Source of the DNA: a virus
Taxonomy: Duplodnaviria; Caudoviricetes
Reading direction: 5' to 3' (one strand)
DNA: 64,000 bases
IMG/VR virus record: IMGVR_UViG_3300037041_001930
Shown here piece by piece: positions 442 to 40,704 of this stretch. The position numbers were made by a program, and so were the translations under genes. The notes under the pieces were generated by a model. It ran no database searches. It worked only from the letters and a program-made list of their open reading frames with translations, and was not told the DNA's origin. Position 1 is the stretch's first letter; every line of letters starts with the position of its first letter.

Positions 442-452
442 GAGTTCAAGGC

Positions 453-6900: not shown

Positions 6901-6959
6901 TGGAGTTCCGGGGGAAGGCTGTCATTGAGCAAAAGGGTGCCGACCGTGGTGGGGTCCAT
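3909..6959 (-). CDS. rpoC: DNA-directed RNA polymerase beta' C-terminal subunit (rpoC2-like), intein-containing; 634 aa after splicing
   Basis: VKSGARG, bridge helix GLDPVEYWAGTYGQRKGMLEVKLATADAGFLSKKL, trigger loop AAQSIGAPLSQGSLN|SKH; N-terminus IDKKELMSIL...GVSVSL resembles the start of RpoC2. Confidence 0.93.
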   Translation of the reverse strand: MDPTTVGTLLLNDSLPPELQIRGKAIDKKELMSILRHIAEKYPDRYKDVIKTMNDVGRDAAFTEGVSVSLSGLRKTDKEKKLIQRARSRVMAIETSDLDPDAKKQAITDVMFPMVEKMQKALEESGESENNPYWFQVKSGARGKMSDYNAIRGASGLVNDHRNEIVPIPILHSLSEGLDPVEYWAGTYGQRKGMLEVKLATADAGFLSKKLANAAHRIVVNKDTAPMTRLPVGLPSKVSDTDNIGAVLARDAGAHKAGERITPDILESLSEDGVEDILVHSPMTEPTEDGGISRIAAGRRDRTELSNIGDAIGIAAAQSIGAPLSQGSLNCLSKGTLVRMADFSLRQIETIKPGEFVLGADISGKTFPVEVTHTFDNGVQPCVTYRFRQSCSHHTFHTITCTPAHKVLTHIHYSSEYGEMHRDAVCAIGDMSKASGIRCEGGLSSENHLIYDWRAKLLGVLLGDGCYTESVTGIHLSCADQTQIDHLNGYLAPHDLQFHICGGQTIYYALTRLSQRSYGRIVRDTITGRVMRTVTENPILQWFRDEGLYGKYAHEKEIPSFVNQWDNQAVSELLAGLFVTDGSVFSRKKDGMGFSFASSSEKLIDGVMELLRIRFGIYATKSSSNSKKKRRHYNVCITKYRDVIRFYRSIRLFGVKCERAADRIKTAVESVTREEWWRQEDRTDAGHLHVYDIEVAHPDHLFVLGNGMIVSNSKHQSGAIGAKKNLRTGFEYLNRVIESPETFPESGPLAEVDGVVKGIRKAPQGGQFVTVDDRDYYLHPGVEPVVKPGDALEAGDDISDGAPHPEQLVRLKGVGEARRRYAEMLQEALTNSGIKTHRRNIETVVAGLINWVKVTNPNGVGDHIVDDVASYNSVAGAYKARAGTKRVAPNSGVGKYLEEPVLHYTPGTRITKKVAGDLQKWGVKDVDAHDDEPDFQPVMQRGVLGVYNDNDWQTRLSGFYTSSGFLDSVHRSRVSDPNSTSYVPALAKATGFGDTLKTTGSYGTPPLPTSPPRSPR
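4824..5969 (-). mobile_element. Intein with LAGLIDADG homing endonuclease (382 aa) in the RNAP trigger loop
   Basis: Starts CLSKGTLVRMAD and ends GNGMIVSN with Ser+1; LLGVLLGDGCY and LLAGLFVTDGSV blocks; visibly more AT-rich than the flanks; removing it restores QGSLN-SKH. Confidence 0.93.
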
Positions 6960-14659: not shown

Positions 14660-15427
14660 TTACCCCGTGATCTCAGTAGCCGGATCACGTTTCTTGAGAG
14701 TTGGAACCATAACAGCCATCGGGGTACTCGCCCCCACGTTGTTGAGGTAGTCGCGCATCGCCTTGGCTTTGGCGCGATACTTATTCTCGTCTTTGTTCTT
14801 GTTATACGCGTTCATGGCCACGATGGTTCCCGCGATACCCAGAGGGATCCCAATGGGGGCCAGGACTTCACCGACACCGGCGGCACCACGCATCCCGAGG
14901 TCCGCGATGAAGCCTGCGGTCTTCGGTAACTCAGCGGTATGACTACCGACTTCCGAGGTACCCAGGTTTTCCACATAGACGTCTTCGGCAACCTTCATGG
15001 CGCGGGAGAGCCCGGCATCCGCGGGGTCGGGTTCACCATTGATCAAGGCCTGGACACGTTTTCTGCTGCGCTCCAGTGAGCTCATCGCTTTGGCTTTTCG
15101 CTTCTTGTCCAGGAAACTATCGAGGGCAGACCAGCCACCAACTGCGGACAGGGTGCCAATGCTGCCTTGCACCGCTGTATCCAGAATGTTGTCGGCTGCT
15201 GTTTTAACTTTGATGCCCTGCTTCTTGAGCTCCTTGGCCTCTTCCTCACTGACATCCACGGGGACCTCAACCGCTGAGCTCTCCCCCGGGGGCAACTTGA
15301 CAGGAGCACGGGTGCCCGACTTATTGGCGATGTCGTAACCCCATCGGGCCAGACGAGCACCAACACCGAGTCCGAGACCGGCGATAGCTGGGAACGCGAC
15401 ATCACTGTAAGTAAGATTGAGTGCCAT
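14660..15427 (-). CDS. Membrane protein with three Gly-rich hydrophobic segments separated by KTA motifs, 255 aa
   Basis: FPAIAGLGLGVGA / KTAA...GSIGTLSAVGGWSAL / KTAG...LAPIGIPLGIAGTIVAM. Confidence 0.8.
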   Translation of the reverse strand: MALNLTYSDVAFPAIAGLGLGVGARLARWGYDIANKSGTRAPVKLPPGESSAVEVPVDVSEEEAKELKKQGIKVKTAADNILDTAVQGSIGTLSAVGGWSALDSFLDKKRKAKAMSSLERSRKRVQALINGEPDPADAGLSRAMKVAEDVYVENLGTSEVGSHTAELPKTAGFIADLGMRGAAGVGEVLAPIGIPLGIAGTIVAMNAYNKNKDENKYRAKAKAMRDYLNNVGASTPMAVMVPTLKKRDPATEITG

Positions 15428-15436
15428 GACGGGATC

Positions 15437-15859
15437 CTATTGTTCCGGGGACGCCTGTAGAGGGGCGAATCGGCGCGGGGGTCGAGGTGATCCAGGAAGT
15501 CCGTAATCGAGTGCAGACCATCGCATGAATGCTTTATACTTTCCGGTCTTCTCGGAGAAATCCACCCGATTCTCAGATAACACTGCACGGGCCTCAGCGA
15601 TGTCCTGCCAAACCCTACGATAGGCTTCCAGGTGGTCTGGGTTATCGAGATCGAATACGGCGACCTCAGGAGTATAGAACTCCTGGACTTGTTTGGAGTC
15701 GGGATCCTTGGGATGGATCAGTGGGACTTCCCCAGTGATCGGGACTTCACGTGGTGCCGTGTGGCGTACCACCCGCATGCCCTGAGGCAGGGGTACCCGG
15801 GTGCCCTGGAGGACCTGGTTGGCGTTAATGGTTCCTGGAGGCAGGGGGTTAGAGCTCAT
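15437..15859 (-). CDS. Hypothetical protein, 140 aa
   Basis: Operon-packed ORF with 3-9 nt gaps. Confidence 0.75.
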   Translation of the reverse strand: MSSNPLPPGTINANQVLQGTRVPLPQGMRVVRHTAPREVPITGEVPLIHPKDPDSKQVQEFYTPEVAVFDLDNPDHLEAYRRVWQDIAEARAVLSENRVDFSEKTGKYKAFMRWSALDYGLPGSPRPPRRFAPLQASPEQ

Positions 15860-15862
15860 CTC

Positions 15863-16591
15863 TCAGAACCTCATGGATTGTTTGGGGGCCGTGCGCTTGG
15901 CAAGAATAGATGACAAAATCTTATTCGTGCGCTGTGACTTCAACTGATCCGCTTTCTGCTCTAGGAGTCGCTTCTCAACCATGACACGCTCGATGTCTTC
16001 ATCAGTGGCGTCTTCCCCAAAGATATGCCCCATTGTGGTCCCCGCGGTACCATAGAGCCCAGCGGACGCCGAGGTCACACCTTTGATCGGTGCGGTGACC
16101 AGAGTGGGGTCCACGAGAAACGAGGCGGCTTCCTTGACGTGACCAGTCTTACAGAACCCGGGGTGATCGATGAGCCCAGAGGCCCGGGCACCCTCGAGGT
16201 ACCCAAGTCTGACCGCGTTGCGGACGTCCCGCTCAATCGCGAGTTTAATGAGTTCTGCCGGCTTCATTTTTGCTGTCTCCATTCCAGTTTTCATATTGAG
16301 TAGCGTCCCCAACCCAGCCCCAATGGTCTTCATTGTCGACGCCGTGGAATCGCTGACCCCCAGCCACTTCGCCGCGAGGGCACCGATGCCGAGGCCGACG
16401 CCGGCGCCCAGGGCACCCTGGACGACCTGAGTAGGCGTGATCCAGGGTTTGGCTGCCGGCTGCTGAGCTGCGGCACGATCAATGATCTCAATGCTCTTCA
16501 CCTTGTCCCAAAGATTCAAGGATGGGTCAGTGAAGACCCTGTCCTTGGCATCGCTCACCGCGATCATAGCCGCTGCGGATTCCATAGTCAT
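15863..16591 (-). CDS. Gly-zipper membrane protein, 242 aa
   Basis: VVQGALGAGVGLGIGALAAKWLG; HVKEAASF motif; ATGA overlap. Confidence 0.8.
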   Translation of the reverse strand: MTMESAAAMIAVSDAKDRVFTDPSLNLWDKVKSIEIIDRAAAQQPAAKPWITPTQVVQGALGAGVGLGIGALAAKWLGVSDSTASTMKTIGAGLGTLLNMKTGMETAKMKPAELIKLAIERDVRNAVRLGYLEGARASGLIDHPGFCKTGHVKEAASFLVDPTLVTAPIKGVTSASAGLYGTAGTTMGHIFGEDATDEDIERVMVEKRLLEQKADQLKSQRTNKILSSILAKRTAPKQSMRF

Positions 16592-19500: not shown

Positions 19501-22293
19501 ATCCCCGAGGACATTGAAGAGCCCCCTGAGCTGCCCCGCAGATTTATTCTGTTGTTCCCATGTCGAGGCATCGAGTCCAGGGGGTGCATTACCCCTGGGC
19601 TTCGAGGCCCCCGTGATCCTGGAGATCAAGGAGTCGTAGGGATTCCCGGCGCCTTTACCCAGGGTGTCGATGTCGATGACACCTGTGTTAAACGGCTCGG
19701 CTTCCTGCTTCATGATGTTGAATGCACGGTCCCCAATCGTGCTCGCCAACATCAATCTGAGATCTGGGGGGAGCCCAGCGAACAATGGGCTGTCTTTAAC
19801 AGTCCCATTCGCGAACTCAATGGCCCCCTGCATCAACTTGGCATCCACCAGCATCTTGGCGCCGCGTTTGTACCCGGCACCTAGCATGTTTAACTTGGAT
19901 TCATCACCAAGATTGTTGATATAGTTCTGTTTTCCCTGTCTTACATTAAAGGCTTGGAGAGGGGACAATGCAGTACCCCAGAAACCCATACCATGGCCAC
20001 CGTTTGCGAATGTGTTCTGGGCAACCTGAGCAATCTTCTCGTCTTCGTACCCCGTGGTATCCGTGAGCAGCCCATACGCCCATCTCCCGATATCCAGTGT
20101 GGACGAGACACCCTCCATGATTACGGCGCCAGCTGCAGTGTTCGCACTCAGAGCACGGATTCCCTTGAGGACAGAAGCTAGTCTAACAGCGGAGGATGCC
20201 CCAGCGGCGGCCCCACTACTCGGAGATCCCGTGAGGACTCTAGCAGTGGATTTCATGCGATCGAGAGCACCAGTGTAAGCCTTCCCTGCAGTAGCCGCGG
20301 GGTTCAGCACTGCGCCTGCAACGGACTTCGTGGCATCAATGGGGTGCCTGACGGTTTGATAAACCTTGTTCAGGATTCCCGTGGGGCTGGCCCCTGGGGG
20401 CGCACTGGCCTTCACGGCATCCTGGGTGGCCTTGTCGAGTCCACGCCACCAGAGCTGCTGGGCACCGAAATGTGCGGACATGTCCAGGGTCTGCTGGCCA
20501 ATGTTGAGAGCTGAACTCTTGATCCATTCAGATGTCGGGACATCTACGTTCGTGGGGTTGTTCCACCTGTTATAGATTGCCCCGCCAACGCCGGCTAGGG
20601 TGCCCCATAAAGGCATACCAATAAGGCTACCATTCCTGGACATCAGCGCTGACGCCATTATCCCAGCGTTCTGAGTCACGTTTCCGAAATTATCACGATC
20701 ACGAAGTTCTCGATAGAGATCAGACCCGGGTGGAATCTTTTTGTCCAGGATGGAGTTCACCCTGGCCTGGGCTTCCTGCACAGGTAACCCACGAACCTCG
20801 TGGAGTGCATCCTGCATCGCATTGAAGTGGTTGTGATAATTGATGACATTGGGGTCCCCCCCAACAATCCTAGCCCCCTTCTTATCGATCCGGTTTATGT
20901 TGAGATCAGTCGGCATGAATGGGGCTGCTACAGGAGTGCATGCCCCGAGTCTCGGCAAGAATAGTTCAACTGGTACGTCGAGAAAGTTGGAAAGCGAACT
21001 AGCGACTTCAGCGACGGGGCGTGTCCCCGAACTCACCATGTTATGGTGATCTTTGATTGCGCGTAAGGTGTGGTCAACTTGGAGTTGAGCCCGGATCCCA
21101 GACTCAGATTTTACCCTCTCATAAACTCGAGTCGCGGCTGCAACAGCATTATCCAGGAACTCTGGGTTCTTCTCACTCCACTGCTGGATCTCAGCCGGAG
21201 TCTCCGGGATCCCCATCTTGAGGAACTCAGTGGCCATGGTATGCGCGGGGTTCAGGGGATCCCCAGCCGCAGCCTTCATCCCAGTGGTGACATCGGCGAT
21301 GTAGCCAGCACGCAGCTTGGCCCCGAGATTCCGAGATTCCGGGTGATCTGGGTTATCTACGAACGCAGACAACATACCCTCGGGGTTCAGCCCCTTATTC
21401 GCGGTGTCCACGCGGTACGCCTTCAAGGCGTCGGCAAGATTTGATGGTTTCCCTGTCCTCTCGGATTCAATGATCGCTGCCTGCGCTGACTTCAGGAGCA
21501 TGTAATCATCGGTGTTGGGTTCACCATTCTCTAGGTGTAATAAAACTGGAAGTCCAGTTTTCCTATGAGTGTGGTAGTCCACTGCGGTATCAATGATGTC
21601 TCTGGCAGTCTTGTCCGCAGAAGCACGGTTCCAGATGTCACCAGTGGCACCAGTATCGGCTTTCCAGAATCTAATGATTTTATCAGTGGGTGCCCCAGAC
21701 GCCTTTCCGACTTCCCAGGCCTGGGCAGCAAAGTATCTCTTGGCCATCCAGGCCTTCGCGGCCTCGTCAGGATTCGGCCCATCCAGTTTCGGAGGCGGTG
21801 CCCATCTGGAATCAAACTTGAACTCGCCATCCTTGGCCTGGGCATCACTGGCCAACATGTCGACGTATTGGTCGCGAACCCCAGGTGACAGTGTCTTTGG
21901 TATCGCGGCGAGATCAGGGGTCATCGTGGCGGCACCATCGTTGACCTGCTTGGTGAGCTCCTTCGAGGGAGTCTTGCCGCCTGCGATGGTATCGACGAGA
22001 TCACTGACCCCTGGGATCCTCATGGCTCCAATAGAAGTCAGGGCCGCTCGAGCCTTATCTGGGTAATTCTTGATCCAGATGTAACCCGCGGCGCCAAGAC
22101 CACCGATGGCAGCCAACCAGATCCATGTATCGGACTTTTCTTCATCCTCGTCGTCATCCGGGGTCCGGGAGTTCGCGGCGAGTTTACGTGTCTTACCATG
22201 CCCAAAGAAATTGGGCGTGTTATTGCGGAGTTCATCAATAGGAAAATGAGCGCGTCGATTCTTGACGCGCTTGATCTCCGACTTTGGTTTCAT
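16588..22293 (-). CDS. Very large (1901 aa) protein with N- and C-proximal hydrophobic helices; possible ejection/internal or tape-measure-like protein
   Basis: WIWLAAIGGLGAAGYIWI near the N-terminus, LAAIPVGLVLMLMGGKAGAIMGALVLGGGAYGAY near the C-terminus, two KLAA motifs; adjacent to the portal-like gene. Function is inferred. Confidence 0.7.
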   Translation of the reverse strand: MKPKSEIKRVKNRRAHFPIDELRNNTPNFFGHGKTRKLAANSRTPDDDEDEEKSDTWIWLAAIGGLGAAGYIWIKNYPDKARAALTSIGAMRIPGVSDLVDTIAGGKTPSKELTKQVNDGAATMTPDLAAIPKTLSPGVRDQYVDMLASDAQAKDGEFKFDSRWAPPPKLDGPNPDEAAKAWMAKRYFAAQAWEVGKASGAPTDKIIRFWKADTGATGDIWNRASADKTARDIIDTAVDYHTHRKTGLPVLLHLENGEPNTDDYMLLKSAQAAIIESERTGKPSNLADALKAYRVDTANKGLNPEGMLSAFVDNPDHPESRNLGAKLRAGYIADVTTGMKAAAGDPLNPAHTMATEFLKMGIPETPAEIQQWSEKNPEFLDNAVAAATRVYERVKSESGIRAQLQVDHTLRAIKDHHNMVSSGTRPVAEVASSLSNFLDVPVELFLPRLGACTPVAAPFMPTDLNINRIDKKGARIVGGDPNVINYHNHFNAMQDALHEVRGLPVQEAQARVNSILDKKIPPGSDLYRELRDRDNFGNVTQNAGIMASALMSRNGSLIGMPLWGTLAGVGGAIYNRWNNPTNVDVPTSEWIKSSALNIGQQTLDMSAHFGAQQLWWRGLDKATQDAVKASAPPGASPTGILNKVYQTVRHPIDATKSVAGAVLNPAATAGKAYTGALDRMKSTARVLTGSPSSGAAAGASSAVRLASVLKGIRALSANTAAGAVIMEGVSSTLDIGRWAYGLLTDTTGYEDEKIAQVAQNTFANGGHGMGFWGTALSPLQAFNVRQGKQNYINNLGDESKLNMLGAGYKRGAKMLVDAKLMQGAIEFANGTVKDSPLFAGLPPDLRLMLASTIGDRAFNIMKQEAEPFNTGVIDIDTLGKGAGNPYDSLISRITGASKPRGNAPPGLDASTWEQQNKSAGQLRGLFNVLGDRDLRDIARTSVAATHDRVRTTVRDALDTSPLYMHLPAAYKDQLAQRAQAHWQSKTDGIVNNLESVKTHDELASVLSQASTAIAPATQQINDFSTGAGFGEKPRFDISRNSPHAIHRGVQGILDTLMDPQDIQALGAPETTKLITDSTGLTPEQIMAKARVKTTDYTDVMKPKMLQRGALRKQEIVDDLKKNGLGDLLVEYRGSDRTSDKYSWGGKTFGGPGNPMNSRYGFDSMGGDSLKNQRIVLEDRREAAKAAAYQRLDIDPKDPNAESIFQAKLSRLPETTAKAVLAPFTRANASLHALNQDVRSQGGHTLGGAAGFERFKDNTFVNPEATNKLLQELGEKYGFDKVEPPAVQGRYYVDAKGNSHDLAEGQEAPKGFKEQAYGFDSSKWDPQGDNAPAWTFNKTTGRIMQVSPEAIRRGYQVDSPLTNPGLYLTGVSRYQTAHPEFWAAKSPETFKNMDAYWRQHQAKAGEAPDPFQPAPEYIMGADGKPTQSIGEGANARPVTREDVITHMHENPKVYRDMFPGGFRGHSTPQTPPGDPAEQSWSSAYWDKRAGGNRAQAIKDYEAYRKNLTKVEAPKAPVVPLPQEPAKVKPTEIQPVKPVVSNTPPVIGNPKKAFAKVWGRGCKLAAESADGGTPLENVVKPMRPLAEGAIDWAKNMMGMQKQPTSQPPPATPDAGDMGKTYTNSIKTPPSAPQPPPGTGGNTGTPALTQQEKSDAVAKSQAAKRKSTQAPQTTATSTTVSATTQATPTSPDATKPPQAPSVWDQAKAKAQEGMDWAQKYNLDLAAIPVGLVLMLMGGKAGAIMGALVLGGGAYGAYQRYQSLNNAGGEIPPPTDPDLLAQIKADPKKMDDYRAKVVKERLEVMRQASADEGKWQQWMKSPDNARFFNSLELAHDFMPSFLKSRVEASDPYFKGINDDQFEALLAYLTGNRIGKPKASRWSLTGLANNTDLKLRSWGLAGGKKP

Positions 22294-24161
22294 TGGGGAG
22301 CTCCGCCACCAGGGGCCTGACCTCCCTGCCCACCCTGGAGAAGCATTTGCTGGCCCTGTGACGAGGCCTGCTGACGTATTTCATCCAGCTTGGCCTTGAC
22401 GAGGCCATGGAGATCTTTGTTGCCTTCGCGAAGCGCCTTGAGCTGCTGCTTGCGGTCGTACTCGGGCATCCCGGCTAATTGACCCGCGATCTGCTCGGCC
22501 TGGGAAGCCATGCCGCCCAGGGTACTCGCATTTGCGCCGCCACCTGCGGGGAGTCCCCCCATAGGAGATCCACCCATGGGCATACCAGGAGGTGGAGGTG
22601 CACCGGCACCGCCTTGCTGCTGGGCCTGCTGTTGCTGCAGCATCGCCGAGGGGCTCTGGGCTCCGGCGAGGGCACTGACAGCTCCCATCTCCTGATCCTT
22701 GACCGCCTTGTCGTCCTGCTCCTTCTGGAGCTCCTGGATAAACTCTTGATGCTTGAAGACTTTCCTGGCCTCGTCGCCGGCGAGGACACCCAGGGGTTCC
22801 AGCGCGGTCTGAGGACTGATCTGATTCGCAGCCATGAGCTGCATGAGAATGTTCTTGCGTTCCTGGTCGTCAGCAATGGTACTCCGCTGAATCCGGACAT
22901 CGGTTTCCTCGAGACCAAAGTTGCGTGCGGCAACTTTAACGATCCATTGCAGGATCGAGGTGTACATCGCGGGCACCGCAGACCACGCGGACTCAAACAG
23001 ACGCAGGGCCATCGGAGCCGCCTGTGCTGTCAGTGTCATCTGGTGGTACTCAAGTGGGACATTGCACTGGTTCAAGGATTCCTGCTGACGGAACTTCAAC
23101 TTGTCCGCGGGGAGGAGATCCTTGCCCTCACCACCCAGGAACTGGTAGTTCACGGGGTACGGTGCGGTGTGGTAAGACATGGGTTCAGCGCGATGTGCAT
23201 TGATGATACGATTCATACCACCAACGAAGTTGTCCATGCCATGCTGGATCATGGGGTCGTTCTGATTCGCCATTGCTGGAGAAATCAAACGGAGGCCCAG
23301 GGTGTAGTCCGATGCAATGGCTTGGTCGGCACGGTTCAGGATCTGCTGCAACCAGAATGTCCGGAAGTTGGAGATCGAGGCGGGGACACCCCAGCCACGA
23401 GTCCGCATCCCCGAGATCACGGGTTCATCGACGTGGTAAATCATGTCCTCGTCGAAGAGGAGACGACCATTAACCGCGACGGCCTCGAGGACCTCGATGG
23501 GAGTGTCATCAATGAAGATGCGGGCCTTCGACATGATGTCTTGACGGAAGTCGTTGGGGATCCTCCACCAAATGTTCTTGCGCTGGGACCAGAAGTTCTG
23601 GGCGAGCTCGATCTCGAAGGGGGAGTACCGGAGGACACGGATCCGGGAGATATCGGGATCCTTGCGATCCCGGAGCACGAAGTCCTGGGTATTCCCACAG
23701 GAAGGGCATGGCTTCTTGCGGAGCCAGCGGACCCCTCGCTGAGAAGTCAGATCAATGGTGTAATCGACATGCTTGATGGGCTGCTCGAAGTAGCAGTGTG
23801 GGCATGACAGGTTACGCTTGAATGGTAAGTATATGGACAGGAAGCAGTTACCATAACATAGGAAATCGGATCCTGCCGCCTTTAGCTCGCGGCTATAGTT
23901 GAGATGCTTCTGGAAGAGATCCTTGAACTCGGACTCCTCATTCTCGGAGAGTGCCGGGAATTGAACATTGGTAATGAAATGTGCGATGACACGCCCGAAA
24001 GCAGAACGATAGTTGCCATCGGTGAGCCAGAGGTACTGGGCCCACCACATGATGAGCTCATGGTTAGTGGGCATCACCGTGGAGGCATAGTCGAGCCAGG
24101 GGACATGGAGTTGACGTACGGCCTGGCCGCGATCCCCACCATTGACATTGAGATTCGCCAT
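22290..24161 (-). CDS. Putative portal protein with zinc-ribbon insertion, 623 aa
   Basis: Portal-like segments DFLCYGNCFLSIY, RVLRYSPFEIEL, RGWGVP, then a helical region; CPHC...CPSC insert; Q/G/P-rich tail. Resemblance judged by eye only. Confidence 0.55.
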   Translation of the reverse strand: MANLNVNGGDRGQAVRQLHVPWLDYASTVMPTNHELIMWWAQYLWLTDGNYRSAFGRVIAHFITNVQFPALSENEESEFKDLFQKHLNYSRELKAAGSDFLCYGNCFLSIYLPFKRNLSCPHCYFEQPIKHVDYTIDLTSQRGVRWLRKKPCPSCGNTQDFVLRDRKDPDISRIRVLRYSPFEIELAQNFWSQRKNIWWRIPNDFRQDIMSKARIFIDDTPIEVLEAVAVNGRLLFDEDMIYHVDEPVISGMRTRGWGVPASISNFRTFWLQQILNRADQAIASDYTLGLRLISPAMANQNDPMIQHGMDNFVGGMNRIINAHRAEPMSYHTAPYPVNYQFLGGEGKDLLPADKLKFRQQESLNQCNVPLEYHQMTLTAQAAPMALRLFESAWSAVPAMYTSILQWIVKVAARNFGLEETDVRIQRSTIADDQERKNILMQLMAANQISPQTALEPLGVLAGDEARKVFKHQEFIQELQKEQDDKAVKDQEMGAVSALAGAQSPSAMLQQQQAQQQGGAGAPPPPGMPMGGSPMGGLPAGGGANASTLGGMASQAEQIAGQLAGMPEYDRKQQLKALREGNKDLHGLVKAKLDEIRQQASSQGQQMLLQGGQGGQAPGGGAPQ

Positions 24162-25350: not shown

Positions 25351-26214
25351 TCACTGAGCGTCAAGCCCTGCTATGTAGCCGTCGAGGTCGCTGCCATTGA
25401 TCTCGGTGAGTAAAACACGCTCCCAGAGCACACGGACTCCATTGAGATTCCGCTTGGCTTCTGGGGTGTCACCCTCGAGGTCGGCATAGGGAACGAAGGC
25501 ATCAAGGGTGCCCGGATCAGTCTCCTGTGTCGAGACTATCCAGTTGTGGTTCCCTGCCGTATTGGTGTCGAAAGGATGCAACAGTGTGAAGTCCGCGAAG
25601 AGGAGGCTGCGAGGTGCCACCCCAGCGGCGACGAGATCCTGGAGCATGGTCTTCATGGGGTCAATGTTGGGGCGACCAATGATATTGATCCAGATGTTCC
25701 GAGTAATCGCGGCACAGGCCTTGAAGAAGGCGACCTGATCCCCGGTGATCAGAGACTTGCCATCATAGGCGTCGTGGAGGATAAAATCGTAGGGGTAATT
25801 GTCACGCGGGCTCCCCGCGATGAGGGGGATCATGGCGAGGGCATCAGCGGTGAATACCCGAAGACGGCCGGACTCGATGGCAGCATTGACCTCAGGGAAT
25901 CCTTGCTTGCACAAATGGACTGCCACGGGGTCAATTTCGATGACATCGATGCGGACCCCAGGGAAGTTGGTGAGCACGGCGACGGCACCGGCACCACTGC
26001 CGAGACCAATCATGAGACCTCTCCCCCTTGGGTTCATCGCTGCGGCGGCAAGCCACCCCAGGGTGTACGGGGATGCCGAGACGACACCGGGGCCGCCGTG
26101 CTTAGACGGGGGATCCAGGAACGCGGCACCCTGGACCTGCCCATTGATTCGGAGCTGGCGTGCGCCATTGACGTCGATGACATCGACGACGCCGAACATA
26201 CCCGGGGCCATCAT
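25351..26214 (-). CDS. Spermidine-synthase-like class I SAM-dependent transferase
   Basis: LMIGLGSGAG (motif I), IDVIEIDPVAV, FTADAL, YDFILHDAYDG. Confidence 0.8.
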   Translation of the reverse strand: MMAPGMFGVVDVIDVNGARQLRINGQVQGAAFLDPPSKHGGPGVVSASPYTLGWLAAAAMNPRGRGLMIGLGSGAGAVAVLTNFPGVRIDVIEIDPVAVHLCKQGFPEVNAAIESGRLRVFTADALAMIPLIAGSPRDNYPYDFILHDAYDGKSLITGDQVAFFKACAAITRNIWINIIGRPNIDPMKTMLQDLVAAGVAPRSLLFADFTLLHPFDTNTAGNHNWIVSTQETDPGTLDAFVPYADLEGDTPEAKRNLNGVRVLWERVLLTEINGSDLDGYIAGLDAQ

Positions 26215-27158
26215 GCCGACTGCAACTCAGGATGGGTATGGTCAGCAGGGGCGTACTTCCGACGTAGTTTAGTGGGTCTGACATCCCCACTGTAGGGGTC
26301 ATCAGATGACCGACGTTTCTTTGTAGACTCCACAGGACGATTAGACATTTTGTATAAGAGATACAATAGTCCAGCAGTGGCTACACCAGCAGTACCCAGG
26401 ACAAGAGGTGATGTCAAAGTTTTAACAGCATCGCCCATGTTTTCGACACCACGTGATGTCCGCTCACCAGTGGCGGCTACATCTTTAGAAAGTTGTTCAA
26501 CATTCTTCGCCGTATTTGCCGTACTTGTCAAGCCTTCAACAACTGGTTTATTTGATTCCTCGATGAGTTTCTTGGAGGCTCCAGCTGCCCCCTCGAAAGC
26601 ATTGGCTGCACTACTAATTGACTTCGCAGATCTAGCGGCTTCCAACCCAAGACCAATTCCAGCTTTAACACCGATATTCTTCATGATTGCGTCAGTTCCA
26701 GCCCTTGATTTCAAGGGGTCAAGAATGGCAAGCGCACGCTGGGGATTCGCAGATGAAATCTCGAGCTGTCCCCCCTTCGTAGTGGGGTGATCAATCCGCA
26801 TCGTAAATGCCCCTGGATTTTTGGGGTCTGGTGACCAGATATTAGATTTAGATAGATCGGGTTGTCCTTTACCTGCTTTTAAGGCATCTTGGAGTTCGCT
26901 GTGTCCAGCGTGTAAGTGGCCCCCACGCATTGCGTGTCGCTGCCCCTTCGTAGTCGCCAGTGCCCCTATCGCAGAGAAAGTTGCGGCTTGCAGTGGATCG
27001 ATGGGTTGTCCACGAATCTTATCAATGGCAATGGGAATGGTGCCACCAGCTACACCTGTGGCCACTGGCCAAATGATGTCACGGAGTGCCGCCGCCGCCT
27101 CCTTTTGCATGGCCACTTTACGAGTGAGATAAAACAACATGATCTGTGCTGGGCTCAT
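26211..27158 (-). CDS. Membrane-anchored hypothetical protein, 315 aa, AT-richer than neighbours
   Basis: Leader ...LTRKVAMQKEAAAA; hydrophobic IIWPVATGVAGG and LVLGTAGVATAGLLYLLY; ATGA overlaps at both ends. Confidence 0.75.
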   Translation of the reverse strand: MSPAQIMLFYLTRKVAMQKEAAAALRDIIWPVATGVAGGTIPIAIDKIRGQPIDPLQAATFSAIGALATTKGQRHAMRGGHLHAGHSELQDALKAGKGQPDLSKSNIWSPDPKNPGAFTMRIDHPTTKGGQLEISSANPQRALAILDPLKSRAGTDAIMKNIGVKAGIGLGLEAARSAKSISSAANAFEGAAGASKKLIEESNKPVVEGLTSTANTAKNVEQLSKDVAATGERTSRGVENMGDAVKTLTSPLVLGTAGVATAGLLYLLYKMSNRPVESTKKRRSSDDPYSGDVRPTKLRRKYAPADHTHPELQSA

Positions 27159-29245
27159 ATCTGGGGCTCCTGTGCAGACGTTTGTAGCGGTGCTTCGGCT
27201 ACTGCCTCTGGGTTCTGGATCTCGGGGGTCTCCGGCTTCACCGCCTTCGACCTCCGAATCGCACGGTGGATCACCCTCGCCCTGGCACGATCAAGATTAC
27301 GGAATGGCTTATTGATGGCTAGACCCATGGACCCGTAGACCTGCTTGAGGACCTGGTCATGGGGGATCCACTCACCGGGGAAATCCGCGGGTGCCTCGCC
27401 TTCACCGAGATGAAAGGCGTAGTCGTAGCCGTGGTACCCAGGCTCCGGCGCCCCTTCATCAGGGATCACGCGGACGTTGGACGAGTAGGGGGCTGGGGCC
27501 CCCTTACCCTCAGTCGGGAAATGAAATCGACGGTTGCTGTCACGTCGAACCAATACTTTACCTTCGGGATCCAAATAGACGTACTCAGTTTTAGGAAGCA
27601 GCGCGGCAGCATCTGCCTGCTTCTTCAGTGGCATCTCGGTGTGCGTGGCCAGGACGTCCTCACCGACCCCGCCTGTGAAAAACTCTTTCTCATCGAAGTA
27701 GGTGACCCCAGCGGTCTCTGCGGCGTCATGATCGTCATCGGTGTTGCCAACCATGCAGATCACGGGATCCAAGGAGAACGCTTCCTCGGCGTATTCGAGC
27801 ATCGCCGGCGAGGGTTTCCTACCCGCATCGTCTTCATCGGTGCAGAACACGATGTCGTCGATCTCAGGCAGGAGCTCAAGGGTCTCGTCATTGAAGTCGA
27901 GGACATCAGCTAGGGTGCTCGTCCCCATGACACTGCGATTCGTGACCCCGATGATGCGGACCCCCGCTGCCTTAAACTTCTTCAGGAGTTCCTTGACCCC
28001 AGGCTGTATCTTCTGAGTAGCATCGATGCCGGCGTCGTCATCCCATTCGGCGACCACGGTGCCATCGAGATCAACGAGGAGCCCAGGCGCCGTCGATGGT
28101 GTCTTGTCCTGGAACTTCTGGGTGCGCATGGATCCCGAGATCTCAGCGGCATGCTTCTCGGCGAGAGTATTGGTGTGCTTGGCCATCGTGAAATCCCCGT
28201 TGGTCGGGGAGTCCCCGCTGCGGAGGACAAGGAGAACCCGGCCATCCGGGAATCTCCGGACTTCATCGAAGTAGTGGCCATGGGCGGCCTCGAGGTCCTG
28301 GAGGGCCTTCACGAAGACCTTGGGGTCCTTGGGCGCATAGATACGGCGAAGACTATTGCGGTACAGTGCCCAGCCGTGGTGCTGACGCGGAACACTGGCC
28401 AGCTTCTTGCCCTTGAGTTCGGGATCCTTCTTCGCCATGCCCCTGGCGGCCTCGACGAGTTCGAGGCGGACCTCGTTGGCCCTCTTGGCCCAGTCGTTCT
28501 TGGCTACGAGTTCTTTGAGACGGGAGATCAGCGTGGCGAAGGGGATCACATCGAAGTCCTCCCGATCCGGGTGTGTGGTCCCCAGCTTGCCGTCATGGAC
28601 TCCAGTGAAGAAGTAGGTTCGTTCACCGTCGAATGCGGAGTCGTCCCAGAAGTCGTTGACCCCCTGGGGCCAAATCGACTCCACGATCTCACGGGTCTCC
28701 GGGGAGATGATCTTGAGATCGGCTTCCTCAATGGCCTCCCGAATCGCGGCGAGCAATGGGGGTTCGCCATCGTCGATGCCACCCCCGGGGAACAGGATGT
28801 AGTCTCCCTTGTCGATGCCGACGACTCCATCCTTGTCGAACGCGACGATCTCGGATCTCGGCCTCAGGAGCTGGCTCGGGGAGCCCTCGTGTTTATCCGG
28901 TGTGGGTTCATTCTCGGCGGCACGCTTGCCCAGCCCTCTGGCGAAGCTGTGATCCCTGCGTTGTCTTGCCAAGGCGGCCTCATCGGGCGCGACATCCTTG
29001 GGCTTCGCCGGCATCATCTTTGTCGCATTGGTCCAGATCTTCGCTGCTGGAGACGGCAGGCTGTGGTCCTCGGATGTCCCCCTGCAGTCACCGCCACTGA
29101 AGAGTTCAAGAAAGGTTTTGCCCTCGACCATGTGGGCATTCGTGGCTTTAACAGGATTCCCACCCGTTGGCGTCGCCACAGGTGTGTTGGTTACGGGGCG
29201 ATCACTGCCCCGGCCTGGAGATGGAATCTTGGTCTCCGCACGCAT
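27155..29245 (-). CDS. Multidomain protein: Nudix hydrolase + PCD-like domain + HAD phosphatase + degenerate Nudix-like C-terminal domain
   Basis: Nudix box GGGIDDGEPPLLAAIREAIEEADL; HAD motifs LVDLDGTV, GVTN, RKPSPAM, MVGNTDDD; the middle domain GWALYRNSLRRIY..HGHY..GDFTMAK resembles pterin carbinolamine dehydratase. Confidence 0.85.
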   Translation of the reverse strand: MRAETKIPSPGRGSDRPVTNTPVATPTGGNPVKATNAHMVEGKTFLELFSGGDCRGTSEDHSLPSPAAKIWTNATKMMPAKPKDVAPDEAALARQRRDHSFARGLGKRAAENEPTPDKHEGSPSQLLRPRSEIVAFDKDGVVGIDKGDYILFPGGGIDDGEPPLLAAIREAIEEADLKIISPETREIVESIWPQGVNDFWDDSAFDGERTYFFTGVHDGKLGTTHPDREDFDVIPFATLISRLKELVAKNDWAKRANEVRLELVEAARGMAKKDPELKGKKLASVPRQHHGWALYRNSLRRIYAPKDPKVFVKALQDLEAAHGHYFDEVRRFPDGRVLLVLRSGDSPTNGDFTMAKHTNTLAEKHAAEISGSMRTQKFQDKTPSTAPGLLVDLDGTVVAEWDDDAGIDATQKIQPGVKELLKKFKAAGVRIIGVTNRSVMGTSTLADVLDFNDETLELLPEIDDIVFCTDEDDAGRKPSPAMLEYAEEAFSLDPVICMVGNTDDDHDAAETAGVTYFDEKEFFTGGVGEDVLATHTEMPLKKQADAAALLPKTEYVYLDPEGKVLVRRDSNRRFHFPTEGKGAPAPYSSNVRVIPDEGAPEPGYHGYDYAFHLGEGEAPADFPGEWIPHDQVLKQVYGSMGLAINKPFRNLDRARARVIHRAIRRSKAVKPETPEIQNPEAVAEAPLQTSAQEPQI

Positions 29246-29988
29246 CAGATACCCCCGAGATACCGGATCGCATAGGCGCCGAGACGCCGGAGTTCCACTG
29301 CTGTCTTGGGGAGATTGGGGCCCATGCCATAGCTGGCGCCCGTGGACTGTGTTGGCGGGCTCCCGGGCTGCCCACTCGCCGTGGAGGTCATGGGTTGGGC
29401 TTGGGCGACACCACCGGAACCGATACCAGGAGTGGACCCCTGGGCTCCACTGACCTGACCACCTCCAGCGGGGATGATGGTCTTTGAGCGATGCTGGGGG
29501 TCCACGGCGAGATCGCCGGGACCCTGGTTCTTCTGGATCCCCACGCCACCCGGTGCGGGCATCCTGCTCACATTGGGGGTCGAGGATGCCGTATTGGAGA
29601 CTGACATCGATGTGTTCGGCAGCCTGCCACCAGCCATCGCCTTCTTTTCCAACTTCTCGGATTCCGTATAATACTTTGGATTCTTGGCGAGGTGGTCGAT
29701 GGAGATTTCTTTACGTGCCTCGAGGTTGGGGGTGTGCTCACCCTCTTCCTTGATCCCCTTGATGAGTTCCTTGACACTGAGCTTGCCATGCCTTGGTGTC
29801 TGCCCCCCGAGGATGGCAGCTGCGACCTTGCCAACACCTAACCCCAGGAATGCCGCCTCTTTCTTCCAGTTCTCCGGTTTACGCCCCTGCTTGTTGGCAG
29901 TAGCGTAGAACACACGCTCAGCCTTTTCCTTACTGTAGGTGTCTCGCATGGAATTAAGAACTTTCTTGGCATCCCCGACGATAGGCAT
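29245..29988 (-). CDS. Modular protein: small basic N-domain + DUF5661-like domain + low-complexity tail
   Basis: ELIKGIKEEGEHT...EISIDHLAKNPKYYT resembles DUF5661; modules are separated by KEAA/KVAA, KKAMA and KTAV. Confidence 0.75.
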   Translation of the reverse strand: MPIVGDAKKVLNSMRDTYSKEKAERVFYATANKQGRKPENWKKEAAFLGLGVGKVAAAILGGQTPRHGKLSVKELIKGIKEEGEHTPNLEARKEISIDHLAKNPKYYTESEKLEKKAMAGGRLPNTSMSVSNTASSTPNVSRMPAPGGVGIQKNQGPGDLAVDPQHRSKTIIPAGGGQVSGAQGSTPGIGSGGVAQAQPMTSTASGQPGSPPTQSTGASYGMGPNLPKTAVELRRLGAYAIRYLGGI

Positions 29989-37178: not shown

Positions 37179-40100
37179 TCAGGCGTGTTGTAAGGTGCAG
37201 GCTCCACCCGCACATGCCATCTCAGGTTGGGTACCCTTGGTGCCATCGTGTTCCTCGACCATCAGGGAGTAGTCGACATCACGCCAGCTCCGGGTCAAAC
37301 GTTCCCAGAGGTGGAGGTTGTTGACTTCCTTGAGGCAATAGGTCATCTGCTTCAGCGCAGCGTCACGGTCAGCCTTGCGCTCATAAGTCATCTCTACTGG
37401 GCACTGGAAGTAATTCTCTGCGAACTTCCTGGCCCTACGTATCCAATCCTTCTTGAGTTCATGGACGTGCTCATAGGCCTCGCGGATGGCATCAGGGAGT
37501 GCATCGGGATCCCCAGGATATGGAACACCATTGGCGAGAACGGCGGCTTCACCAAGCCCCATCACGGTATCACATGCCAACCAGAGATTGTTACCAAAGG
37601 CGTGGAGTCCATCTACGATGAGACCAGATGCAAAGAAGGCGCCGCGACCATAGCGCTCCAGGATCTCACTTTCCGTGCGGACCTCGCAGAACGGGGCCTG
37701 GGGGTAATCGAGATCCCCTGATGTCCCCAGGATGCTGACCCCCGTGAAGGACTCACGGTTATCGTAGATGTACCGTGCCGCGGCCTCCTCTTGGGTCTGC
37801 CGGATCGTGATCGTGTTGGAGACATTGTGGTGCAGCCAGGGCTTCACTGCTCTCGCGGGGACACTGCCAGCGGCGACCCAGTTGTCCTGGGTGAGTTTGA
37901 CGTACTCGAGCTGCTTGAGCCCATTGACCTCGCGCCGCGTCAGGGCCTCATCGGAGGCCTCGATGCAGAACGTGATCACCGCGGTGTTACCATTGGGCTC
38001 CCACACCGAGCGTTCAATGGCATCGGGATTGTGGACCTTGAAGTATTGGAAGGGGGCCTCGTTGATGTTGGCCTGGGCCCTACGGAAGTATCTCTTGGCG
38101 TGCTGGGCATGAATACCGCTAGAGGTCCCGAGCAGGCAAGACGTCGAACCCGCGGGTTTAACACATGTCGCCCGTGCAGTTGGCCGGATACCCAGACGAG
38201 GTGCGAGATGCGCGTTGACATCGAGGATGAGCTGGGCCAGGGCGCGTTGCTTCTGGGGATCAAAAGACTGTGTGGGGTTGTCCATCATCCCGGTCATGGA
38301 GACCCCGAGCAGGGCCTCACGCTTCGCAATGCACTCGCTGACATTGCCGAGGTAGTCGAACTTGGTGTACCCGGCCTGGAGTGTGCCCAGGATCGCCGCA
38401 GCGGTACACGCGAGACCCCAGTCCTTATCGGTGCGGCACGCCTTCGCGTTGACTTCACAGAGGTTGCATTGCTTGGTGAGTACGTTGTTGAACACACAAC
38501 AATGTGTGTCCGGTTCCTCTAAGCAGTAGGTATCACCTTTTCCTAAGAAATTTACTGACCGGATTATCTGGTGCTTGCCCTTGCAGCGTGGGGTGTACCC
38601 CTTAGATGTATCCAAGCGATGACACGGTATCTTCTGGCACTCAGTAATCTGGATATACCATGATGCCTCAGTCCGTTCCCCAAAGTTGGTGGCGGCATCA
38701 TTATGAAGATTGACGGAGCACAGGATTCCAACTCGGCTTAATAGAAGCTGGGCGTCGCGACAACGTGACTCGGTACCGTAAATCCGGATACCATTGCCAG
38801 CCTGGGAACCATCGGCATCAGCCCACCCCGCGATGAATGATAAGATGCTATCCGATGACCACGCGTGTAGATCACGCAAGGCGTTCGGATCTCTTTTCAA
38901 TCGTGTAGCAAAACCAACGTCGATATCAAAAACGATATCAACTGAGTCGACCCCGTATCCTGGTTTCCTGACACGCGGGCCCCGCTTGCCATCTAGTGGT
39001 AGATCAATTTTAGGACCATATAGAGTTGCCTTCGCACGCCCTTTACCGTGAAGAGGTTCCGTGTGACCATCCCCAAGTAGGAAACCCATCTCATAGGCAC
39101 AGGGTTCATCGAGCCCTGGCTGCTCCTGAAAACCACTACGGGGAACATGGATGGGGTGATCCGAGAATTGTAATAGTTTACCAGTGGGCACCTCAGAGTA
39201 TCCCTTGCCAAATCTATCTTTTACCAACCAGACATGATCCTCAGTGCAGTCGAGAAAACTGCCATCGCTGAGCTCAACTCGATAGAGCTTCCGATTACTG
39301 CCAGTGGAAAACGGTTTAGCCACGCACCACCTGGTGCCATTCCATATCTTTATCTGCTTACCGACTACATCCTTGATAGCGTGGATGCCGTCCTCAGTCA
39401 TCAGAAGCGTATCCCCGCCGACGCAGAATGCCCAACCACTGAGCTCATCGTCTTGGTTGACTATTGCGGCGTGGGTGGATCCATCATTGAAATCGACGTC
39501 AACGAGCCGACGCCCATCCTGCAGTAACTGGGTACGTGATGCGGGGTCGTTCAGGATCTCCTTGAGATCCTTCCGAGAAATCGCGGGGTACATCCCAGTT
39601 TCCACGCAGGGGTTCACCATGAGCTCCGTGCTATCCGACCACACGAACCCGGGCTCCCCGTACTGGCGACGCGCCAACATGAAGATGTCATGGAAGGCTT
39701 CCCAGGAGGTCTCACCACGGATCAGCATCGCCGAGTTATTAGAACGCGCGCGCTGTGGGTTGTCCTGCATCCAGTTCCCAGTCTTCGCATTCATCATCTC
39801 GTGGTCGTCGACACTGAACAAGCAGATCGTGGCACTGCGGCGAACCCCGCCGGCGAGGACGGCATCCGAGGCGTGCATGATGATGTCATAGACGTCGATG
39901 GGGCGGAGACGGCAGTCCTCACCATGGCAGCGAGTCAGCGCGGCATCGAGGACCCCTCTGATCTTCTCTAGGGATGCTGACAGCGGCCCAGGCCCCGGGG
40001 CCTTGCCGGCACCCGTGCTCAGACTCGAGCCCTGGTTACGGATCCGGGAGTAATCGAAGCTGACATGACTGCCCATGTAATCAGAGAAGCATCCGGGGTG

Positions 40101-40649
40101 TTGGAAGGACACCTGGGAATCATTGCCTGGTGCGGTTTCTTCCGCGAACTCGTTCATACCACTGCCAAGACATCCATAGGACGCCAGGAGGACACCAAGG
40201 GCATCCGCCCAGCCTTCAACAGAGTCGGCAACCGTGAACACCTTGATCTGATGTTTATCCACGGCGATTAACTTGGGCAGCTTGGCGACGTGGTGGAGTT
40301 GAACCGAGAACCCGGTGCCGCAGCCACAGAGCAGGAGATACAAGCACTCCTGGAAGAAGCGGGGGCGATCCGCGTAGGACCCCGAGCAGTTGAACGCACG
40401 GGCTTCCTTCCTCAGGATAGGGGAACCTCCGAACTGAAGAGCTCTCTGGGAGCCTAGAACCAAACCAGCCTTCATGGCTTCCAGACAGGTCTTCAACTCA
40501 GCTTCGATATCAAACCCTTTGTACTTCGTGCGGTGCATGTCGATGACGCGTTCAAAACTCTCACTTGGTATCTCTCGGCGATTCAGTTCAGGGATAAAGC
40601 ATCCATAAGACGCTGCGAACTTATAGGCTGCTAGGGATTGCGTTGTCAT
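37179..40649 (-). CDS. nrdJ: Class II (adenosylcobalamin-dependent, RTPR-like) ribonucleotide reductase with intein; ~837 aa after splicing
   Basis: GSQRALQFGG, FNCS, LLCGCGTGFSV, GGVRRSA, NPCVE, CNLCE, TCVKPAGSTS, C-terminal CAGGAC; start moved to ATG 40649 (GGAG RBS). Confidence 0.93.
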   Translation of the reverse strand: MTTQSLAAYKFAASYGCFIPELNRREIPSESFERVIDMHRTKYKGFDIEAELKTCLEAMKAGLVLGSQRALQFGGSPILRKEARAFNCSGSYADRPRFFQECLYLLLCGCGTGFSVQLHHVAKLPKLIAVDKHQIKVFTVADSVEGWADALGVLLASYGCLGSGMNEFAEETAPGNDSQVSFQHPGCFSDYMGSHVSFDYSRIRNQGSSLSTGAGKAPGPGPLSASLEKIRGVLDAALTRCHGEDCRLRPIDVYDIIMHASDAVLAGGVRRSATICLFSVDDHEMMNAKTGNWMQDNPQRARSNNSAMLIRGETSWEAFHDIFMLARRQYGEPGFVWSDSTELMVNPCVETGMYPAISRKDLKEILNDPASRTQLLQDGRRLVDVDFNDGSTHAAIVNQDDELSGWAFCVGGDTLLMTEDGIHAIKDVVGKQIKIWNGTRWCVAKPFSTGSNRKLYRVELSDGSFLDCTEDHVWLVKDRFGKGYSEVPTGKLLQFSDHPIHVPRSGFQEQPGLDEPCAYEMGFLLGDGHTEPLHGKGRAKATLYGPKIDLPLDGKRGPRVRKPGYGVDSVDIVFDIDVGFATRLKRDPNALRDLHAWSSDSILSFIAGWADADGSQAGNGIRIYGTESRCRDAQLLLSRVGILCSVNLHNDAATNFGERTEASWYIQITECQKIPCHRLDTSKGYTPRCKGKHQIIRSVNFLGKGDTYCLEEPDTHCCVFNNVLTKQCNLCEVNAKACRTDKDWGLACTAAAILGTLQAGYTKFDYLGNVSECIAKREALLGVSMTGMMDNPTQSFDPQKQRALAQLILDVNAHLAPRLGIRPTARATCVKPAGSTSCLLGTSSGIHAQHAKRYFRRAQANINEAPFQYFKVHNPDAIERSVWEPNGNTAVITFCIEASDEALTRREVNGLKQLEYVKLTQDNWVAAGSVPARAVKPWLHHNVSNTITIRQTQEEAAARYIYDNRESFTGVSILGTSGDLDYPQAPFCEVRTESEILERYGRGAFFASGLIVDGLHAFGNNLWLACDTVMGLGEAAVLANGVPYPGDPDALPDAIREAYEHVHELKKDWIRRARKFAENYFQCPVEMTYERKADRDAALKQMTYCLKEVNNLHLWERLTRSWRDVDYSLMVEEHDGTKGTQPEMACAGGACTLQHA
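38469..39425 (-). mobile_element. Intein with LAGLIDADG endonuclease (319 aa), C-terminal Gln
   Basis: Starts CVGGDTLLMT and ends VFNNVLTKQ before Cys+1 of CNLCE; EMGFLLGDG and FIAGWADADGS blocks; AT-richer than the flanks. Confidence 0.92.
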
Positions 40650-40704
40650 ATGACACTCCATGTAGTCGTTGGTTTTTTCGTCACAGGTGCTACATCCTGT
40701 GGGG

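Follow-up and report, generated by a model that had tools for sequence, protein, structure and literature searches.

Why would a tailed phage string four enzyme-like domains into a single chain and place the same three-residue motif, K-x-A, at every domain boundary? The question is raised by a gene in a stretch of 64,000 nucleotides (the window) from a single IMG/VR virus record (IMGVR_UViG_3300037041_001930). The record is linear, with 171,559 bp and an estimated completeness of 79% (full size about 215 kb), and it comes from a large, uncultured tailed phage that carries RNA polymerase genes. The open reading frame in question (P0001) encodes a protein of 696 amino acids. With modest confidence, we favor the reading that this protein is a capsid-packaged precursor in which the prohead protease would cut after K-x-A. 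Because this conserved tag also marks the capsid, scaffold-like, and protease proteins of the phage, the chain would probably be separated into its enzymes within the capsid.

A K-x-A motif at each domain junction

An initial annotation of this DNA had reported the reading frame, the strings KRAA, KLAS, KHAA, KQAD, DLDGT, and HYF within it, and a K-x-A motif at four of four domain boundaries, and had proposed on this basis that the protein is a polyprotein. We found the reading frame and all of the strings where it had placed them. In the protein, KRAA spans residues 107–110, KLAS 281–284, KHAA 364–367, and KQAD 542–545. In an AlphaFold2 model of the whole protein (from an alignment of 13 sequences; mean predicted local distance difference test [pLDDT] of 70), the folded units are residues 121–279, 294–364, 373–537, and 547–668. 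Residues 1–110, 280–293, and 538–546 have pLDDT values below 50, and a stretch of lower confidence follows the helix at 349–364. The junctions in the model coincide with the motifs at 107, 281, 364, and 542. The initial annotation had suggested hidden Markov models and structure prediction for fixing the domain limits, and the limits from structure prediction agree with all four motifs rather than falling elsewhere. The parts of the protein are as follows (PCD is pterin-4a-carbinolamine dehydratase).

27155..29245, minus strand: the whole reading frame (P0001), 696 amino acids, 77 kDa
28928..29245, minus strand: N-terminal leader, residues 1–106 (1–109 with junction site 1), predicted to be disordered (pLDDT below 50 over 1–110)
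28919..28927, minus strand: junction site 1, K107-R-A109, then A-E-N-E-P, at the end of the disordered leader
28409..28885, minus strand: module 1, a Nudix hydrolase (residues 121–279) that keeps its catalytic box and has a helical extension at the C terminus
28397..28405, minus strand: junction site 2, K281-L-A283, inside the disordered linker 280–293
28157..28366, minus strand: module 2, PCD/DCoH-like (residues 294–363), with a beta-alpha-beta-beta-alpha order in the model
28148..28156, minus strand: junction site 3, K364-H-A366, at the end of helix 349–364 and before the lower-confidence stretch
27635..28129, minus strand: module 3, a capless HAD-IIIA phosphatase (residues 373–537) according to Pfam, NCBIfam, and structure
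27611..27622, minus strand: junction site 4, K542-Q-A-D545, inside the disordered linker 538–546
27242..27610, minus strand: module 4, a Nudix-fold domain (residues 546–668) with an Arg-rich terminal helix (L-D-R-A-R-A-R)

The number of K-x-A motifs is unremarkable by itself: there are seven in the protein and 4.5 are expected from its composition. Because this difference is not significant, we rejected the count as evidence. As for their position, all four of the model-defined linkers contained a K-x-A in a fraction of 5e-5 of whole-protein shuffles and in a fraction of 0.013 of within-linker shuffles. These two results, the unremarkable count and the 1.3% of within-linker shuffles that give all four, are what can be said for the idea that the motifs arose by chance in linkers that are rich in Lys and Ala.

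Conservation speaks against chance. An exhaustive profile-free search of a library that was clustered at 50% identified 269 related clusters of metagenomic sequences, and for 59 of these E was ≤ 1e-30; there are homologs with the same architecture as the 696-amino-acid protein. At site 107, K-x-A is present in 10 of 13 close homologs, with R-x-A in one other and K-x-C in another; 60 of 84 clusters have a K-x-A ahead of module 1 (35 to 9 residues before the anchor R130). At site 281, the K and the A are invariant in all 13 close homologs, the match is exact for 20 of 22 members of a wider set, and 69 of 73 clusters have a K-x-A just past module 1. All seven of the close homologs that have module 2 show K-[HT]-A at site 364, with a register shift of one residue. 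At site 542, K-x-A-D is found in 13 of 13, and across 77 sequences the K and the D are invariant and the A is at least 90% conserved. K-x-A lies directly ahead of module 4 in 76 of 81 clusters, including one that is off-register. For K-x-A-D the count is about 75 of 81, and K-x-G-D occurs in two further clusters.

The residue right after K-x-A depends on the junction: it may be G or A, a mixture in which A and S are the most frequent, or D. For the junction before module 4, this residue (P1′) is D in 74 of 75 cases. Within the protein, conservation stands out as isolated islands at K281/A283, K542/A544/D545, M1, E113, and R130, and nowhere else. As controls, we considered the three K-x-A copies that lie inside domains, at 254, 425, and 581, and these are conserved in just 2 of 73, 7 of 67, and 1 of 80 clusters, respectively. 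Overall, the position and the conservation of the junction motifs exceed chance. Given the position-specific conservation in 70–80 clusters and the lack of it at the intradomain copies, the chance explanation is effectively refuted, and we give it next to no weight.

Fused and split versions of the modules

Three parts are constant in the family: leader motif, Nudix domain, and pseudo-Nudix domain (module 4). Module 4 is among the two most widespread modules. Other domains vary. Among 72 family members, the leader motif, Nudix, and module 4 are combined with a HAD domain in 22 and with DUF5661 in 12; rarer inserts are of the PNK3P type (four members), Peptidase_C39 (two or three), and Pterin_4a (two), and the PCD-like module is confined to the closest relatives. 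One member each has a LigD 3′-phosphoesterase together with an ATP-dependent ligase, or a spermidine-synthase-like domain. Separate neighboring genes encode DUF5661 and the spermidine-synthase-like domain in this genome, and elsewhere in the family they are fused. We found no homologs of the 696-amino-acid protein in cultured phages; the HAD part alone matches two uncultured huge phages.

The modules also occur in single-module genes, and in these the short N-terminal leader ends in K-x-A exactly at the position of the junction in the fused proteins. P0099 has 15 residues, K-T-A, D, and then module 4; P0078 has nine residues, K-R-A, G, and then the Nudix domain; and P0054 begins with M-A-K-I-A and continues with the HAD domain. 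Judging from their sequences, these split versions are as a removable-propeptide signal predicts, and their leader ends would be hard to explain by linker composition. Because the motifs coincide with the domain limits and are conserved, including at the ends of single-domain leaders, we consider that the polyprotein idea of the initial annotation is well supported by comparison.

The leader of the fused protein has a motif of its own. Residues 20–37 (approximately) hold a short family-wide motif, N-x-P ... T-G-G-x-P ... S/T-N ... G, in which P22, G28, G29, P31, and N36 are invariant in the alignment of 13 homologs and P22 is conserved in at least 90% of 72 family members. The ATG of the reading frame overlaps the TGA of the upstream gene, and we favor this long start because the N-terminal motif is kept in homologs. 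The leader may be a capsid-targeting propeptide, with the leader motif as the targeting signal. We looked in this genome for paralogs of the leader and of modules 2 and 4, and found none.

Two further observations concern the family. Longer homologs have a Gly-zipper-rich extension plus another K-x-A ahead of the leader motif. Also, P0021 (1323 amino acids, on a 164-kb Logan contig) joins a LigD 3′-phosphoesterase, an ATP-dependent ligase, Nudix, DUF5661, and module 4, a combination that points to the healing and sealing of ends as a theme of the cargo.

The same motif in head proteins

The gene is flanked by a tail-fiber gene and a portal-like gene, with RNA polymerase genes past the portal-like gene, and the order of this block of virion genes is retained on other contigs. 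The nearest cultured relatives of this phage, as identified via an RNA polymerase gene (about 30% identity), are Salmonella phage Arash and Vibrio phages D181, D148, and D69. Virion preparations of Arash are dominated by RNA polymerase subunits, capsid, and portal proteins (PMC10585845), which favors the idea that the genes near those for the portal and RNA polymerase encode packaged proteins. Several other genes of this phage are relevant here.

Genome 14894-16438 (L001:14897-16438), minus strand, 2.1–3.7 kb before the window start: predicted head-maturation protease, 514 amino acids (phrog_18299, 1.9e-8)
Genome 11260-12198 (L001:11263-12198), minus strand, before the window: candidate for the major capsid protein, 312 amino acids (by homology to Arash gp226)
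Window 1627-3879, minus strand: K-x-A-rich protein without a family match, 9 copies
Window 1-456, running past the window start: K-x-A-rich protein without a family match, 499 amino acids, 12 copies
Genome 10800-11174: K-x-A-rich protein without a family match, 8 copies

The predicted protease itself has 10 K-x-A where 3.3 are expected, as well as a Cys-rich insert (C-S-V-C-G-H-K ... C-E-H). Its homologs include Arash gp222, a protein of Vibrio phage D181, and proteins of about 200 cluster-C-type mycobacteriophages, and a K-V-A is aligned between this phage and Arash. It had no match among the sequences of solved structures, and neither Peptidase_S78 (PF04586) nor RNA_ligase (PF09414) had a match in the phage's own record, which is estimated to be 79% complete.

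Arash gp226 is a homolog of the capsid candidate (27% identity, E 1e-24). When the two are aligned, K-A-A (residue 25) of the candidate falls on K-E-A (residue 27) of gp226, and D181 likewise has K-E-A at 27. More broadly, four head-module proteins of this phage have 8–12 copies of K-x-A each (2.7–5.2 expected); the corresponding figures are 7–10 (1.8–3.0 expected) for Arash and 10–11 (2.9–3.9 expected) for D181, and the scaffold-like neighbors in Arash and D181 are enriched three- to four-fold. Within this genome, K-x-A occurs in the first 30 or so residues of 10 of 28 head-module proteins versus 17 of 118 proteins in the rest (p = 0.014). The three K-x-A-rich proteins without a family match have an excess of 2.3- to 3-fold and are candidate scaffold or internal head proteins. 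As the motif is shared by head proteins of this phage, Arash, and D181, we regard K-x-A as a head-assembly feature of the whole clade.

In the open-access literature, we found nothing that links K-x-A to prohead processing, which is no proof that the motif is undescribed, and nothing relevant on Nudix proteins in virion proteomes. The virion proteomics of Arash is given as coverage figures, and the 86.6% coverage of the capsid protein leaves removal of its N terminus undecided (PMC10585845).

A cut precursor or an intact enzyme

We infer cleavage, presence in the virion, and delivery of the 696-amino-acid protein from the gene context, from the motif that it shares with head proteins, and from the proteomics of a distant relative that has no homolog of it. 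The proposed course of events is this. The precursor would enter the prohead, perhaps via the conserved leader motif. The prohead protease would then cut after the Ala of K-x-A. If L/I-x-E in T4 and A-x-E in SPN3US are a guide, the K, x, and A would be P3, P2, and P1. The released fragments, of roughly 9–20 kDa, would be too big to leave the shell; they would remain with the DNA and be ejected into the cell at infection.

Several findings weigh against this reading. Cleavage at K-x-A is a deduction for this uncultured phage and for every relative, and the Arash data are coverage figures. Arash and the Vibrio phages have no homolog of the 696-amino-acid protein. The protease call comes from a single PHROG match, and the 514-amino-acid protein has no match in Pfam. 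Site 364 is the weakest of the four junctions, as in the wider set just 8 of 16 have the motif within three residues on either side. K-x-A-D ahead of module 4 is near-invariant and has a pLDDT of about 84 in a deep-alignment model, so it may be a structural N-terminal element of module 4 and not a scissile one. Finally, the cuts by the prohead protease of SPN3US mostly remove N-terminal propeptides and do not separate enzymes that are retained (PMC10052503).

Some of these points favor another explanation, namely that the protein acts as an intact 77-kDa multidomain ("polyvalent") enzyme, in the virion or in the cell, with K-x-A as an uncut docking or packaging tag or as a domain cap. In one form of this idea, K-x-A could be a repeated capsid-targeting or scaffold-binding signal. 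An almost invariant K-x-A-D that is modeled fairly confidently as the start of module 4 would fit a cap, uncut multidomain phage effectors such as the N4 virion RNA polymerase are known (PMC5512222), and the evidence that the 696-amino-acid protein is cleaved is indirect. Against an intact enzyme, the K-x-A-ended leaders of the single-domain homologs resemble removable propeptides, and so does the K-x-A at residue 25–27 of the capsid protein in three lineages. Also, K-x-A is most abundant in the predicted protease and in the scaffold-like proteins, which recalls the self-processing proteases and degraded scaffolds of other phages. We consider the intact enzyme to be unlikely, while giving it more weight than any other alternative to the cut precursor.

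A broader claim would be that the clade that includes this phage, Arash, D181, and many uncultured phages has an undescribed prohead-protease specificity, with K-x-A as a general cut code, and that host-takeover enzymes are cassettes preceded by this code, which can be fused or split without losing packaging or release. The 696-amino-acid protein would be the clearest case, with four cassettes. We hold this broader claim a little less firmly than the cut precursor itself, and rate its chances at slightly under even.

Predicted activities of the modules

If the precursor is cut, then the first product would be a Nudix pyrophosphohydrolase with intact catalytic residues. The initial annotation had called a Nudix and a HAD domain, and Pfam bears out both. 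Module 1 scores 34.7 bits against NUDIX (PF00293; cutoff 21.1) at residues 151–239, with E 2e-8. We compared it to the Nudix box G-x5-E-x7-R-E-U-x-E-E-x-G-U, with its catalytic R-E ... E-E: G155, E161, R169-E170, and E173-E174 are all present and invariant among homologs, and the deviations are an Ala as the U after R-E and an Asp in place of the last Gly. Its structural neighbors are RppH (by Foldseek) and, for the model of residues 110–276, DDP1 (Z 12.5) and NudC (Z 12.3). The Nudix box and the C-terminal helical extension are in common with Escherichia coli RppH, yeast DDP1 (DIPP), and NudC, but identity is 15–19%, and the NCBIfam RppH models score far below their cutoffs.

The second product would be a module with the PCD/DCoH fold and without the catalytic His pair, and so it would probably serve in binding or oligomerization. 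His-His-Pro is the catalytic motif of pterin-4a-carbinolamine dehydratases; module 2 reads G-H-Y-F-D-E (GHYF at 325–328) in its place, and the second His varies in relatives. The window protein itself has no match to Pterin_4a or other Pfam families over module 2, and the call stems from homologs: P0004, P0005, P0007, and P0014 match Pterin_4a (PF01329) with E of 2e-5 to 9e-4 across profile positions 12–91, nearly the full length of the profile, at scores of 19.8–25.2 bits that are below the cutoff of 26. Module 2 has the same size as the PF01329 enzymes and the same beta-alpha-beta-beta-alpha order, and it is unlike them in having H-Y-F instead of H-H-P. With these sub-cutoff matches and the GHYF in the sequence, the earlier description of a PCD-like domain that lacks HHP is upheld.

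The third product would be a HAD-IIIA phosphomonoesterase of the GmhB/PNKP type. Module 3 matches the Pfam HAD/Hydrolase model (38.1 bits, residues 396–513, E 3e-9) and NCBIfam TIGR01662 (HAD-SF-IIIA; 47.3 bits, cutoff 44.6). All four HAD motifs are present (DLDGT at 392–396, T436, K478, and G500 ... D505), and D394, G500, and D505 are at least 90% conserved. It also scores 22.0 bits against PNK3P (PF08645), which equals the cutoff of 22 (4 of 72 relatives match this family). In VIA-align comparisons, GmhB (Z 15.1), the mammalian PNKP phosphatase (14.4), HisB-N (13.2), and the T4 Pnkp phosphatase (13.0) are effectively tied. Module 3 shares the four HAD motifs with these proteins, at Z of 13–15; unlike the HAD-IIIA references, it reaches no equivalog cutoff, and it has no kinase partner domain. 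These structural ties do not decide between a sugar-phosphate and a polynucleotide 3′-phosphate substrate.

The fourth product would be a pseudoenzyme that has the Nudix fold and an Arg-rich helix and that probably serves in binding. A new model of module 4, built with 77 sequences, has a pLDDT of 94.8. All 50 of 50 rows from VIA-align are Nudix proteins, with Z from 8.6 (root-mean-square deviation 3.4, 104 residues aligned) to 5.8, and the leading Foldseek matches are all of the Nudix fold (RppH with E 2e-4 and TM of about 0.5). Against a library of viral structures there were generic Nudix matches, none of them with E ≤ 1e-3. Module 4 has no Nudix box, it had no match in Pfam in five family members, and where the box helix would be, the model has a loop that is rich in Pro and Gly. 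Thus, the "degenerate Nudix-like" C-terminal domain of the initial annotation is a Nudix fold in the model that lacks the box. A complex prediction for modules 1 and 4, motivated by the idea of a Nudix pseudo-dimer, scored 0.00, which counts neither way on binding.

What would these products act on? One hint toward nucleic-acid ends is the resemblance to RppH, DIPP, and NudC (5′ ends) and to PNKP-type proteins (3′ ends), along with the relative that has a phosphoesterase and a ligase; some relatives also carry an extra RppH-like Nudix domain (by NCBIfam). The structural neighbors also hint at nucleotide-sugar phosphates. The likeliest task of the enzymes, held with low confidence, would be to process RNA or DNA at an early stage of infection by trimming 5′ ends that bear a polyphosphate or cap and 3′ ends that bear a phosphate. 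Because GmhB and HisB-N are equally close to module 3, the assignment to nucleic-acid ends is a weak guess, and it would more probably turn out to be wrong than right.

Another explanation is that the protein is a cytoplasmic, non-virion metabolic enzyme that acts on pterins or nucleotides, so that the junction motifs would reflect linker conservation unrelated to capsid maturation. A NudB-like Nudix, a PCD-like module, and a phosphatase could make a pterin pathway, one homolog weakly matches a dihydroneopterin-triphosphate diphosphatase model (8e-5), and auxiliary metabolic genes are common in phages. Yet the PCD-like module has lost the catalytic His pair and is restricted to the closest relatives, and it is not among the three constant parts of the family (leader motif, Nudix, and pseudo-Nudix). 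In addition, the gene lies within a conserved block of virion genes, and its motif is common to head proteins. We therefore regard a metabolic enzyme as improbable, and clearly more so than an intact multidomain enzyme.

Comparison with known systems

The proposed processing can be compared to that of T4, whose gp21 cuts at L/I-x-E, and of the phiKZ-like phage SPN3US, whose gp245 cuts at A-x-E (PMC10052503, PMC5694885). As in these systems, a three-residue motif with a free middle position is common to the capsid protein (at its N terminus), scaffold or internal proteins, the protease, and proteins that would be packaged. This phage also appears to package RNA polymerase, and short leaders end in the motif. 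There are also differences. First, the motif of the proposed cleavage is K-x-A here and x-x-E there. Second, the predicted protease matches a PHROG and not the Pfam models for the T4 or HK97 proteases that were tested or scanned. Third, the sites here lie between folded enzymes, so that cutting would yield several retained enzymes and not a mature protein with a discarded propeptide.

The protein can also be compared to polyvalent proteins, a class for which packaging and delivery along with the DNA are predicted (Iyer et al. 2017, PMC5512222). Like them, it has unrelated effector domains in one chain, is encoded among virion genes, and has domains that are shuffled between relatives. Many polyvalent proteins contain an embedded processing peptidase (this is frequent and not obligatory in the class), whereas Pfam identified no peptidase domain in the 696-amino-acid protein. 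Its modules would instead be released in trans, through recognition of a short coded motif by the capsid protease. A search of that study for the defining domains gave a single mention of Nudix and none of HAD phosphatase (PMC5512222). What is new relative to the known systems is the K-x-A motif, the lack of an embedded peptidase, and the placement of the sites between folded enzymes.

If the sites are cut, then tailed phages would share with RNA viruses the delivery of several enzymes from one precursor, and a capsid-maturation protease with a three-residue code would do the releasing. Such a code would allow packaged and injected proteins to be predicted from sequence across the clade, including its two cultured phages, and would explain the rampant shuffling of domains in the family. 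It would also define a new set of injected enzymes, with an RppH/DIPP-like Nudix and a PNKP/GmhB-like phosphatase (and, in a relative, a LigD phosphoesterase and a ligase), which may act on nucleic-acid ends or signaling nucleotides in the first minutes of infection. A defined pair of protease and motif would be useful for loading cargo into phage capsids.

Neighboring genes and other observations

Nearly all of the genes in the phage record are on the minus strand. The immediate neighbors of interest are as follows.

29245..29988, minus strand: upstream, translationally coupled gene, 247 amino acids, with a weak match to DUF5661 (4.5e-4) and four K-x-A
25351..26214, minus strand: syntenic spermidine-synthase-like neighbor, 287 amino acids (weak match, 1.6e-4)
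22290..24161, minus strand: portal-like gene, 623 amino acids, with weak matches to phrog_64 (3e-4) and SPP1_portal (1.4e-3)

We considered whether the upstream 247-amino-acid protein might be a detached form of the N-terminal extension of the longer homologs, and ruled this out, as no similarity was found. The portal-like gene is the fourth gene downstream, past genes for proteins of 315, 287, and 309 amino acids. On three other contigs, a portal-sized gene (615–617 amino acids) lies two to four genes downstream of the homolog. In one other locus (L003), the gene after the homolog is 35% identical to the spermidine-synthase-like neighbor, and the counterpart of the portal-like gene has 59% identity.

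Two other genes in the window may contain inserted elements. The 1016-amino-acid RNA polymerase beta′-C-like protein (window 3909-6959, minus strand) has matches to LAGLIDADG_3 and Hom_end at residues 558–650, downstream of its match to Rpb1 domain 5, and this segment could represent an intein or the insertion of a homing endonuclease. The ribonucleotide reductase (window 37179-40661, minus strand) is unusually long, at 1160 amino acids, and has a weak primase-like match at residues 388–533, and it may contain an insertion.

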